Below, one piece after another: positions 27,413-46,350 of a stretch of DNA of 64,000 nucleotides. The translations under genes were made by a program, and so were the position numbers. Positions within the stretch are counted from its first letter, which is position 1; the number at the start of each line of letters is the position of its first letter. The stretch is taken from the IMG/VR virus record IMGVR_UViG_3300050343_000150, positions 27,748 to 91,747 of that record; one strand, 5' to 3'. Source of the DNA: a virus. Under the pieces are notes generated by a model that saw nothing but the letters and a program-made list of their open reading frames with translations, made no database searches and was not told the DNA's origin.

Positions 27413-28264
27413 TTATAACCATCTCATTAAAGAAGTGGAAGGTGTTACTGGTGTTTTTGTTTTACTGGTTCTATTTTTACGTAGTTTAAGTACTCTCAGT
27501 TCAGTGACTGAAAGTGTGTTTTTACAGTAGTCCTGAAAATCAGGGCTTTTTAGTAAGTCTTTGAAAAGATATACTTGAGAAGGCCGCATTTTAAGCCTCC
27601 GCAAAATTCTCGGTAATCTAGAATACTCTTTTCTTTGTGGTGGTGTCATCTTTCTGTACATTCTACCATCGTGGGCATATGCTAACATCTCGTAGAAGTA
27701 TGTTTTATTCCATTTTCTTTTTACTTTAGCATCAATAAACATTAATTTGTTAGGGTGAATATTGGGTGCTAGCCAAGAGATAAATTGTATATCAGCAGGT
27801 TCTGAAATTTTCAACATGTCTGCAATAACATCTCTATTTGAATTACGAAGGTAGTCGCCTACCATGGTGAAAATATCTACTTCATAATTTTGAGGTTCAA
27901 CTGAACGTGGTGCGATTTCATTTATTTCGTCTCGTAATGATTTCTTGGTTGCTCTTTTTAGTTTACATAAATTGTATAACTTCTTAGGTACATCTTTTTG
28001 ATTCATAGAACACAAAACTGTTTGTCCTCTATATTGTAAGATGGTTTTTCTAATTAAGTCAATATTAGGTTTGTAATTACACTCTCTGATAATTATTCCA
28101 ACATCAGCAGGAATACTTAGGTTGTCTTCGATATCATATTCATTAGCATACACGATGATAGGAGTATCTGATGTGTATTCTTTTGCTTTAGTTATTTTAT
28201 CTGTGCCTTCTTTTCCTACTATTATTATTGCTCTATTTTTATTGTTCATTGTCAATAGACTCAT
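27413..28264 (-). CDS. Degenerate AAA+ protein, possible clamp-loader large subunit
   Basis: IIIVGKEGTDK degenerate Walker A; near rfcS; C-terminal 'SLMRWL' PIP-like end. Confidence 0.45.
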   Translation of the reverse strand: MSLLTMNNKNRAIIIVGKEGTDKITKAKEYTSDTPIIVYANEYDIEDNLSIPADVGIIIRECNYKPNIDLIRKTILQYRGQTVLCSMNQKDVPKKLYNLCKLKRATKKSLRDEINEIAPRSVEPQNYEVDIFTMVGDYLRNSNRDVIADMLKISEPADIQFISWLAPNIHPNKLMFIDAKVKRKWNKTYFYEMLAYAHDGRMYRKMTPPQRKEYSRLPRILRRLKMRPSQVYLFKDLLKSPDFQDYCKNTLSVTELRVLKLRKNRTSKTKTPVTPSTSLMRWL

Positions 28265-34105: not shown

Positions 34106-34280
34106 CGATTATTTCATGCGTGATTCCATCCATTGTTGCGCCTACGACACTTAGTGCATCTTCTAACACAGTTCTTCGCACTACATTCCTCAACTGTGGT
34201 AGTTTTTCGTATTCTTCTATTACCATACTAAAATGGTATTGCATTTTCTTTAGTGTTTGTATTATATTATCTTCCATCAA
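34023..34280 (-). CDS. Hypothetical protein
   Basis: ORF overlapping the tfb stop. Confidence 0.45.
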   Translation of the reverse strand: MMEDNIIQTLKKMQYHFSMVIEEYEKLPQLRNVVRRTVLEDALSVVGATMDGITHEIIDAWRHQQQQKIYYGDNENEQKENKDRN

Positions 34281-35146
34281 TATGCCCCGCTTAAAAATTG
34301 GTCTACATCCATTTCCATTAGTTCTTTTTTAGTAAGACCTAATGAATTAGACAAGTCCTTGGTTGCCATACGCAATCCGATTGTAGAAGCATTTCCTGAC
34401 TTATCTACTAACTCTGTTTGTGTATGGATTTCATCTTCCATCTGTCCTACTAACCAAAGAGTAGCACAGATTAAATTGGTAGTATATCTTTTACCAACCT
34501 CATTGAAAAACACTTCAATGTGTTCAACAACTCGTATTGATTTACTTCTATAATTAGAAGATACATTATCTAATTTGTCAAGAATACCTATTGTTATTAG
34601 AACAGGGTTATGTGATGACAGTATGTGTGATTTTCTAAAGAATCTTGCAATACGTTTTGCGTATTTAGATATCTTACTTTTACTCACTTTACTATATCCA
34701 CTGTGTTGTTTCAAAACAACTGGGACACCTGCCTCCTTTAACATAAAATATGTTAATGCTGCTGCTCTATCTTCTATTGGTATACCTCGTAAAACATGTT
34801 CATTTTTTAATGAGATAAAATATCCTTTGACACTATTCCTAATGTCTGAGGAAACATTGTAATAAGACAATATCATATTACACAATCTAAACATTCTCTT
34901 ATCTGCTTCAGTATAGGGATTGCTCCAAATATTTTGTGTTTTAAGTCTATAACTCATCTTAGTAGGAGTTTCAATAATATGAGAACCTAAATCTCTTGTT
35001 ACTTCGTAAGAAGAATCTTCTTTCCACTTAACCGTCTCTTCAAAGGGTCGTATCATTTGAATCAACCCACAACTTGAACACACTTTTTCACCCAATACTT
35101 CGTCGAAGTAGTATGTATTGTGATTACACTCAACGCAAGCCATCAT
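34277..35146 (-). CDS. tfb: Transcription initiation factor B (TFB/TFIIB) homolog
   Basis: N-terminal Zn ribbon CVEC...GEKVCSSCG; cyclin-fold repeats with RG.PIE..AAA..Y. Confidence 0.8.
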   Translation of the reverse strand: MMACVECNHNTYYFDEVLGEKVCSSCGLIQMIRPFEETVKWKEDSSYEVTRDLGSHIIETPTKMSYRLKTQNIWSNPYTEADKRMFRLCNMILSYYNVSSDIRNSVKGYFISLKNEHVLRGIPIEDRAAALTYFMLKEAGVPVVLKQHSGYSKVSKSKISKYAKRIARFFRKSHILSSHNPVLITIGILDKLDNVSSNYRSKSIRVVEHIEVFFNEVGKRYTTNLICATLWLVGQMEDEIHTQTELVDKSGNASTIGLRMATKDLSNSLGLTKKELMEMDVDQFLSGAY

Positions 35147-41224: not shown

Positions 41225-41740
41225 TATTTAATCGCAGAGAAAGGTAGAGCCACCACAACTCTTGTTCTAGAAATGGAACTTCAAAATAAATGCTACCTTT
41301 TTTAATCGAACAAAAACTCTGCTCGTTGTCCGTAGTGTGAATACGGATTTGAGTATAATATATCGGGAAAACACTAGGGGGAGACGAAGCCCACTTATGC
41401 TAATGATTATGTGTTTTATTACCGCATTAAAACCGATTTGATTTGTGTGTTTGGGAAAGGAAAGGTACTATGCCCATCTCTCGGAGTAGGGGATTGTATG
41501 TCGGGAAGACACACACGATGTTTCTTACAACCCATGTTATCCTGCTCTATTTTTTATATCGAAAAGCCACCCATACATCCCGTGCATGAGTGAACATGTT
41601 TCCAACCTAACAGTTGCTCCTTAAAAGGTACAACAGGTTTGCCTTCAGTCTGCTCCTATATCTTATTTCCTTATTATTGGTAAACCCAAAATTCCAACTA
41701 CTTTATCACCCCTAAATTCAAGGCCGCTAAACCCCTCTTC
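41225..41740. ncRNA. Candidate structured non-coding RNA or long leader
   Basis: About 500 nt without a credible ORF; nested stems GCAGAG/CTCTGC, AAAGGTAG/CTACCTTT, TCCGTA/TACGGA. Confidence 0.4.
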
Positions 41741-41778
41741 TATTTGTGATATCCCTAAGTAATATGTTGAATGTGAAC

Positions 41779-44341: not shown

Positions 44342-44420
44342 TTTCATTTGCCTCCAAGCACCACCTTAAACGATAAATAACTAATTTTGTTGTTTTTGGA
44401 GGTCCTTGGACAAAGTTAGA

Positions 44421-44459
44421 ACCATATGGTAGTAACTTTTGTCAACTACCTTAATATAG
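44421..44459 (+). promoter_or_regulatory. Repeat element copy 3
   Basis: ACCATATGGTAGTAACTTTTGTCAACTACCTTAATATAG. Confidence 0.8.
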
Positions 44460-44477
44460 GAATTGGCTAGGGTATTT

Positions 44478-44870
44478 ATGTTGGTTGACGTGACCAACAC
44501 GCTATGACTGAATAATGCCGTTGTATAGGCATAAGGTAATACTAGTTTGTTCTGTGGTGGAACAGCGAGCCGGTGTGGTAAAGCATTGGCAGTACAATGA
44601 GAGTAACTCCTCACTAGTATGTATAGTCGGGTTAAATGCTCTAAGCAAAATATACACCCTATGATTATTGGAAGACGCTGGAAACAGTGATGAAACCTAG
44701 CATCCAACTCTTAGTAGAAGAGCAACAGAAAACAATTGAAGAACTAAACACTATAATTAGTAAGGACACAGTGTATTCTACGTGAATACGGACTAGATAC
44801 GAAACTTCTCGAACTATCTAGTGGCCGAGAGAGTTCTTATTGTTAGTTTGCTCTTCTACATCTGAGGTAT
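44478..44870 (+). ncRNA. Candidate ~390-nt highly structured ncRNA
   Basis: Occupies a whole repeat unit with no + strand ORF; many nested stems including a perfect 12-bp 44714-44725/44848-44859 helix. Confidence 0.65.
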
Positions 44871-44886
44871 GTTATACAAAGTTACA

Positions 44887-44926
44887 ACCATATGGTATTC
44901 AACTTTCGTAAGGATACCTCATATAG
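44887..44926 (+). promoter_or_regulatory. Repeat element copy 4
   Basis: ACCATATGGTATTCAACTTTCGTAAGGATACCTCATATAG; ATG at +60. Confidence 0.8.
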
Positions 44927-44946: not shown

Positions 44947-45132
44947 ATGGAAGCAGAAACCAAAATAGAAGCAATGCCAGCATATACGATTGAAGTAGGA
45001 CATATGAAGTCCGGTTCTGATATCGTTCTGATATTAAAAAGTCTGAAAGTGAATAAAGATTCACTTCCGGAAGCAATAGCAGAAATTAAAGCCGCACTAG
45101 AAGTGTTCAATGATATGGGGTTGGGACAATGA
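44947..45132 (+). CDS. Hypothetical early protein
   Basis: ORF at fixed distance from repeat 4. Confidence 0.65.
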   Translation: MEAETKIEAMPAYTIEVGHMKSGSDIVLILKSLKVNKDSLPEAIAEIKAALEVFNDMGLGQ

Positions 45133-45869: not shown

Positions 45870-46048
45870 AAACACCTTATACTATCACAAAAGAGTTGTG
45901 GGATGATTATTATACAATGCAGCAGAGTGGTCAAATGAATATGTTTGGCTACCCTACTGTTGTGTATTTTATATCGCATAACGCCTACCCTAAAGCCCTC
46001 AAACATTTTAATGAAGAAGGTAATACTTCTGATTTAGTGATTGAGTGA
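45866..46048 (+). CDS. Small hypothetical protein (DUF5049-like 'QQSGxxNMF')
   Basis: MQQSGQMNMFG motif; GAGGTG upstream. Confidence 0.6.
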   Translation: MKTPYTITKELWDDYYTMQQSGQMNMFGYPTVVYFISHNAYPKALKHFNEEGNTSDLVIE

Positions 46049-46350
46049 TGTTGGGCAACAAACAAAAAACGAGGAGCGACTACAATAGTGGTGTAGTCCT
46101 AAACCTGTAACCAAACGAGTTGAAATAAACTCAGAAAGATAGGCAATCCTCATTACATTCCTTACTAATTAGTAAATACAGGAAACGATTGACAAGTAAT
46201 CCCTAGTGAGCAATACTATGTACAGCGCAATAATTCTTTAGAGCATTCTAGACAATCCTAAAGTTATTAGTCGGATATGAATCATTTTACGCGAACAACT
46301 ATTACCTCTGTCATGACTTTCCTGAGGAATGAGGTATTATCATACAACGT
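46048..46350 (+). ncRNA. Candidate ~300-nt structured ncRNA or 3' element
   Basis: No ORF; stems GACTACA/TGTAGTC, GAGGA/TCCTC, GAGTT/AACTC, TTCCT/AGGAA, TACCTC/GAGGTA; ends pair ATGTTG/CAACGT. Confidence 0.5.

Follow-up and report, generated by a model that had tools for sequence, protein, structure and literature searches.

A Divergent manA-Type RNA With an Exchangeable 3′ Domain in the Cassette Array of an Archaeal Virus

The Locus and Its Cassette Array

The window, i.e., the whole stretch of DNA that was analyzed, comprises 64,000 nt (positions 27,748 to 91,747 of the IMG/VR virus record IMGVR_UViG_3300050343_000150). At 42.7-47.4 kb it contains an array of cassettes with 7-8 copies of a promoter-like repeat. 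The unit under study (44478-44870) is located between two of these copies, with CCATATGG at 44422 and 44888, which confirms an earlier note on this DNA in which repeat copies were described on both sides of the unit. The following features were assigned to the locus:

42719, 43783, 44422, 44888, 46359, 46741, 47095, and 47384: candidate cassette promoter units with the palindrome AAAGTTA..ACCATATGGT..TAACTTT, a TATA-like box, and a start
44408-44477, + strand: candidate cassette promoter unit of the RNA, an imperfect palindrome and then a TATA-like box
about 44412-44439, + strand: imperfect palindrome AAAGTTA-N-ACCATATGGT-N-TAACTTT
about 44450-44460, + strand: TATA-like box CTTAATATAGG, ~27 nt upstream of the RNA start
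44478-44711, + strand: predicted manA-type core RNA, based on the RF01745 match, covariation in six sequences, and its own model R1
44690-44785, + strand: small ORF of 31 codons when read from the ATG, or 32 when read from the GTG at 44687, considered not coding; it extends from the 3′ end of the core into the 5′ arm of domain 2
44708-44868, + strand: domain 2, a predicted lineage-specific 3′ extension, based on folding energy and comparison with the relative L146
44874-44946, + strand: candidate promoter unit of the next cassette, with the palindrome at 44888, preceding a 61-aa ORF at 44947

In the cassettes the TATA-like box follows the palindrome and lies ~27 nt ahead of a leaderless ATG. 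When the cassettes are aligned, the distance from CCATATGG to the start is 56-59 nt, and five cassette ATGs coincide with the first base of the RNA. Since this base, the first of the 5′ hairpin, aligns with the leaderless ATGs of the other cassettes, the RNA is expected to start at ~44478. The unit is probably a cassette headed by an RNA, with a candidate promoter of the archaeal type (palindrome and TATA box). A T7-type promoter, recognized by a single-subunit RNA polymerase, was also considered and was dropped in favor of an archaeal TATA promoter; no RNA_pol Pfam match was found in the genome.

A scan for sigma-70 promoters and intrinsic terminators gave counts not above those of shuffled sequences and nothing inside the unit. 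Runs of at least five T are missing between 44478 and 46632 of the window. A degenerate promoter copy (47384) comes last, with T7 and T6 runs behind it, and the array ends similarly in the related contigs L136 and L142.

The Carrier Virus

One gene of the window bears on the type of promoter:

34277-35146, − strand: TFB/TFIIB homologue with a Zn ribbon (Pfam) and a cyclin-like core

The core of this protein matches NCBIfam NF001658 (E 1.5e-10) and human TFIIB in the PDB (E 3.7e-4), and a Pfam search of the genome for TFIIB repeats gave no match. The Pfam Zn-ribbon family alone is unspecific, because bacterial control genomes also match it. In the relative G005, the same Zn ribbon occurs in an ORF of 314 aa beside the cassette array. 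The TFB homologue may guide transcription at the cassette promoters with their palindrome and TATA box.

The family-B DNA polymerase (PolB) of the virus is split, with haloarchaeal tailed viruses as the nearest matches, and an ERCC4-HhH nuclease as well as an ATP-dependent ligase are also encoded. These gene features fit the magroviruses of Marine Group II archaea as described (PMC5434244). Judged from its genes, the carrier is an archaeal, magrovirus-like virus; the exact magrovirus group is left unsettled, because chaperonin and MCM had no Pfam match in the genome. Structured RNAs were not mentioned in the magrovirus literature searched. A manA-type RNA in an archaeal virus, set among cassettes with a TATA box and leaderless starts, appears to be new here.

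Predicted Fold of the Unit

Minimum-energy folds reproduced every stem proposed in the earlier note, position for position. Within the core, the following parts were assigned on the + strand:

44479-44485/44493-44499, + strand: P1 hairpin (TGTTGGT/ACCAACA)
44500-44504/44698-44702, + strand: closing helix
44505-44515, + strand: invariant TGACTGAATAA
44515-44519/44528-44532, + strand: hairpin (ATGCC/GGCAT)
44532-44537, + strand: invariant TAAGGT
44539-44547/44613-44620, + strand: four-way-junction stem, with three hairpins inside
44549-44553/44559-44563, + strand: GUGGUG-loop hairpin
44565-44576/44583-44593, + strand: G-U-rich hairpin
44599-44602/44609-44612, + strand: GUAACU-loop hairpin
44623-44632/44656-44668, + strand: long hairpin with a variable tip
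44676-44680/44685-44689, + strand: GAAA-capped hairpin

Domain 2 is predicted to fold into an outer CUC/GAG clamp, the perfect 12-bp helix 44714-44725/44848-44859, and a 7-bp helix AAGAACU/AGUUCUU around three hairpins; the inner stems GTATTC/GAATAC and CTAGATA/TATCTAG are also present. It ends U-rich after the strong helix.

The observation that G-U pairs favor the + strand was borne out as well. Nine such pairs are invariant or near-invariant in an alignment of six sequences, for which reason the RNA is placed on the + strand. Comparison with shuffled sequences, by which the proposed structure was to be checked, gave a divided picture. Domain 2 (161 nt) folds clearly better than its shuffles, with an MFE of −47.1 kcal/mol and a z of −4.17 (0 of 200 shuffles fold as well), and the whole unit does so modestly (z = −2.6 on the + and −3.7 on the − strand), but the 5′ domain alone (235 nt) is no better than its shuffles (z = −0.58). 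Taken by itself, folding energy argues only weakly, and the comparative evidence is decisive.

Coding Potential

According to the earlier note the unit lacks an ORF on the + strand. This is nearly right; the + strand has ORFs of 49 and 32 codons, and the − strand has one of 108 codons. In the relatives described below, none of them keeps its length, its frame, or its sequence. All six sequences of group A retain the ATG at 44690, which opens frames of 31, 24, 24, 23, 26, and 11 codons, and the peptides have only M-[K/N/T]-P in common. An A-to-T change at 44762 turns a sense codon of the window into a stop in the relative L146. The open segments of the minus strand change frame between relatives. 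In L161, an open frame of 83 codons follows the core, for which no homologue was found in the relatives. Taken together, the unit is judged to be non-coding.

Relationship to the manA Family

In the earlier note the unit had been regarded as a novel RNA matching nothing known. The Infernal search against Rfam overturned this part of the claim, since the first 230 nt are recognized as a divergent member of the manA family (RF01745) by a full-length and reciprocal match, though below the gathering threshold. The covariance model matches 44480-44707 on the + strand over its positions 1-192 of 192 with 31.7 bits, which falls short of the 55.2 bits that Rfam sets as the gathering threshold for manA. 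The E-value was 2.4e-6 in a 701-nt search with all families and 7.5e-8 in a search of the 91.7-kb record with this family alone; 1.6e-6 was also obtained. At the gathering thresholds no Rfam match was found in the whole window, and an E-value scan of 44440-44900 returned manA only, plus one chance match to a snoRNA (E = 4.5). RNase P, SRP, intron, and all other Rfam families gave no match to the unit, and neither a tRNA nor a tmRNA was detected by ARAGORN.

No match was obtained with blastn of the unit against GenBank phages or with nhmmer against canonical manA loci. Only the covariance model detects the kinship, because the primary-sequence similarity is too low for nhmmer. Canonical cyanophage manA RNAs, which were pulled from IMG/VR by their core pattern, score 120-197 bits, and the unit with its 31.7 bits is therefore a remote variant. 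In the RF01745 alignment, the motifs UGACUGAAUAA, UAAGGU, and GUGGUG are found in their exact structural places, and they are invariant in six of six clade sequences. The same alignment recovers the 5′ hairpin, the closing helix, and the four-way junction as they had been drawn in the earlier note.

Relatives were found with a pattern requiring the GTAACTCC hairpin of the variant, and they form two groups. Group A consists of the window, L146, L136 (on the same contig as L155), L142 (whose unit is identical in sequence to that of L145), L161, and L163. Its members share the unit layout and have the promoter palindrome on both sides. Group B was found on the contigs L134, L143, L144, L147, L149, L154, L157, L158, and L160, and the group B contig G004 is a 169-kb T4-like phage (Gp23 capsid protein, E 2e-68). 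With RF01745, the five group A relatives and five tested group B members score 35-52 bits, all below the threshold. In most group B copies, another conserved hairpin domain follows, with the motifs CAUACUUG, CAGUCCCUC, and CUCUCCUCACAAUUAAA. A search of IMG/VR with two flanking proteins gave no relatives. The promoter-palindrome pattern found the partial relatives G001 and G003, which share the cassette promoters and are without a manA match.

Identity among the six cores of group A is 74-95%. RNAalifold places 62 pairs in 11 helices, with 97.8% of the pair cells paired, and 14 of these pairs show compensatory changes on both sides; in the stem of the four-way junction, six of eight pairs co-vary. 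In the control, 0 of 500 shuffles were as good, and partners slid by 1-3 columns left 0-1 such pairs. This covariation, together with the position in the cassette, supports the claim of a structured non-coding RNA on the + strand that heads its own promoter cassette, and the unit is regarded as a real folded non-coding RNA gene.

The model R1, which was built from group A only, finds a single copy in the window (44477-44711). Reciprocally, it finds canonical cyanophage manA RNAs at Rfam's coordinates (loci L018, L020, L003, L005, L109, and L141; E 9e-9 to 7e-3) and also group B, and the core is therefore regarded as homologous to manA. The segment 44478-44711 very probably represents a homologous, but strongly divergent clade of this family. 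The RNA class is not new; the clade is a sub-threshold manA variant that carries a modular 3′ extension and occurs in an archaeal virus. In this way, a clade that was missed by the Rfam threshold now joins the manA family.

In some of the canonical cyanophage loci (L006, L017, L047, and others), a tRNA gene lies 0-50 nt past manA. This adjacency was dropped as too weak, as it occurs in 3 of 14 loci according to Rfam and in 6 of 100 according to ARAGORN. About a quarter of the canonical loci have a common element, GACCUAAGAUGCAAC.., just downstream of manA.

Domain 2 and Exchangeable 3′ Modules

No Rfam match was found for domain 2. Compared with L146, it is 93% identical (85% in the manA core), and the 11 differences comprise two compensatory pairs (four positions), one G-U compatible change, five unpaired positions, and one change that breaks a terminal pair. 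One of the compensatory pairs falls in the 12-bp helix. In the 3′ domains of L136 and L142, a long closing helix is kept with another sequence (GCAGGG or GUAGGG pairing with CCCUGC or CCCUAC), as is a conserved GAGAGUUCUUAU stretch. Domain 2 was compared by per-sequence folds; an alignment with MAFFT across the subclades mis-registers its 5′ arm.

L161 and L163 carry different, unrelated 3′ domains in place of domain 2. An ORF-free element of ~170 nt, termed element X, was observed at L163:1791-1960, L136:12553-12724, L142:6493-6658, and L133:5035-5131 (− strand). It is 80-87% identical between contigs and absent from the window. In L163 it is fused behind the core, and in L136, L142, and the G001/G003 relatives it forms a separate cassette. 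Since L161 and L163 carry other 3′ domains and element X also stands alone, the 3′ domain is best described as an exchangeable RNA module. Domain 2 is specific to the closest relatives of the virus, and those further removed carry other RNA modules in its place. Several exchangeable RNA modules are thus present in the cassette arrays of magrovirus-like viruses.

In the cassette array of the window, the ORF-free region 46048-46350 is 99.7% identical in L146, which is unusually strong for a non-coding gap. The ORF-poor region 41225-41770, at the head of a minus-strand block, is 68-70% identical in L142, L136, and L133 and 93% in L146.

Genomic Context of the RNA in the Relatives

The RNA cassette closes the array in L142; a degenerate palindrome and two T8 runs lie beyond it, and no ORF comes after them. 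The same two T8 runs follow the unit in L136, where the locus ends before a downstream ORF can be judged. No run of at least five T was found after the RNA in the window, L146, and L163; in the window, read-through or co-transcription with the next cassette, and thereby an action in cis, is therefore possible. The neighbors of the RNA differ between viruses. A 246-aa gene is located downstream of the RNA in the window and two cassettes upstream in L142, and its two versions are only 26% identical; the 157-aa gene that flanks the array is 75% identical between these two viruses. The core itself keeps 74-85% identity among viruses in which the 246-aa protein beside it is only 26% identical. As the RNA begins at the position of a start codon, and the L142 copy stands last in its array with T8 runs, the RNA looks free-standing. 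We lean toward a free-standing, trans-acting structured RNA, not a riboswitch leader.

Loop Complementarities of the Core

Canonical manA RNAs form decamers, octamers, and a 60-subunit cage built from pentamers in vitro, according to a preprint of July 2026, in which the pentamer contacts are L5-L7′ and L8-L9′ (or L3-L8′) kissing loops (bioRxiv 10.64898/2026.07.01.735769). One loop pair of the canonical RNAs co-varies in 97 of 100 sequences, with CUGU facing ACAG in 89 and AUGU facing ACAU in 8 of them; in group B it reads UUGU or CUUGU with ACAA or ACAAG. We infer that this co-varying pair is the L8-L9 of the preprint, by equating the motif with the interface. L7 contains ACCA in 100 of 100 canonical sequences, complementary to UGGU of the GUGGUG loop. 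In groups A and B, L7 reads GUAACU and ACCA is absent. In group A, L8 is variable, and the CUG/CAG complementarity is now a local hairpin, CUG-GAAA-CAG, co-varying to CUA-GAAA-UAG. The clade has lost or internalized the two traceable loop complementarities. As the canonical loop motifs are absent in group A, cage formation is not transferable to it by homology.

Alternative Explanations

The unit could in principle encode a small protein, by the 31-codon ORF at 44690 or by the 108-codon ORF of the minus strand, with the RNA structure being incidental. The constant ATG, a single 3-nt indel between L136 and L142 that preserves the frame, and minus-strand open frames of 53-77 codons would fit this explanation. 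It is, however, hardly credible and already largely refuted by a peptide that varies between 11 and 31 codons with only three common residues, by the stop in L146 at a sense codon of the window, by minus-strand frames that switch among the relatives, and by helix substitutions that are compensatory. An unrelated new RNA family, which resembles manA by convergence or by chance, would account for the score under the Rfam threshold, for the differing L7 and L8/L9 features, and for the poor alignment of the 3′ half of the model with its two long insertions and low posterior probabilities. Such a resemblance would nevertheless have to produce identical core motifs of 11, 6, and 6 nt in the same order and structural places, the T4-like-phage group B variants are intermediate with their 35-52 bits, and R1 detects canonical members although it was built without them, so that this explanation is very improbable.

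A cis-acting leader deserves more weight. manA is listed as a candidate riboswitch with a cis-regulatory role by Rfam as well as by Weinberg et al. (2010; PMC2864571); in this case, the manA domain would sense a ligand and domain 2 would be the expression platform, by which read-through into the next cassette, with its 61-aa and 246-aa genes, would be controlled. The missing T-run between the RNA and the next cassette in the window, as well as the U-rich stretch with which domain 2 ends after a strong helix, would be in line with such a function. On the other hand, the next cassette has a complete promoter unit of its own, the L142 cassette is the last of its array with T8 runs and no ORF, and the downstream neighbor is not conserved, the 246-aa gene even lying upstream in L142. 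Furthermore, the presumed expression platform is swapped for unrelated modules in L161 and L163, and neither a ligand nor an in vivo function of manA was reported in the literature searched. Hence, we consider a leader or riboswitch unlikely. An archaeal TATA-type promoter, the lack of a fixed downstream gene, and terminator-like runs in some relatives argue against a bacterial-style cis regulation, and the same points favor a role of the folded RNA itself.

Proposed Mode of Action

The explanation that we regard as the best overall, and as likely, is a free-standing non-coding RNA gene composed of a manA-family core and domain 2. Transcription would proceed from the archaeal-type cassette promoter, with the first base at ~44478, i.e., at the position of a leaderless start codon. 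The segment 44478-44711 would fold into the manA-family core, which would be fused at its 3′ side to the very stable multi-branch domain 44708-44868. As the homology suggests, the RNA would act through its tertiary fold. Because loop complementarities were lost or internalized, the RNA of the clade may be monomeric or may assemble by other interfaces, and domain 2 would be an appendage at the periphery.

A wider view would be that manA-class RNAs are trans-acting viral RNAs instead of riboswitches and are indifferent to the domain of the host. The archaeal form would then consist of a core scaffold with exchangeable 3′ modules, like domain 2 or the element X of L163, and would serve as an RNA particle or carrier of modular build, whose interfaces differ from those of the cyanophage cage. 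This view is doubtful. The status of manA as an orphan riboswitch candidate dates from 2010. The clade, as a natural variant with rewired co-varying loops, offers a test case for assembly features versus biological function.

Comparison With Known Systems

The unit and the canonical manA RNAs (RF01745) share the same helix order, i.e., a 5′ hairpin, a closing helix, an internal loop with UGACUGAAUAA and UAAGGU, a four-way junction, and a GUGGUG loop, and both originate from marine viruses. They differ in the L7 loop, which is GUAACU in the unit and contains ..ACCA.. in the canonical RNAs, and in the complementary L8/L9 loops, in whose place the unit has one variable hairpin and one local hairpin capped by GAAA. 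The unit also has an extra 3′ domain of 160 nt and probably forms its own cassette, whereas canonical manA is annotated as lying in the 5′ UTR of a protein gene. Its carrier is an archaeal virus, whereas the canonical carriers are T4-like cyanophages or a gamma-proteobacterium.

ROOL and GOLLD, which are also structured RNAs borne by phages and are large, form multimers of RNA alone. Like these, the unit seems to be a free-standing, highly structured viral RNA. However, it is much smaller, and no sequence or model similarity to them was found, as the Rfam scan returned manA only.

For manA, self-assembly into closed homo-oligomers is known only by cryo-EM of canonical RNAs (bioRxiv 10.64898/2026.07.01.735769). 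The unit belongs very probably to the same RNA family as these cage assemblies, and the core fold is probably common to both. In contrast to the cage-forming RNAs, the unit is without the canonical co-varying loop pair and without ACCA, and its assembly is hypothetical.
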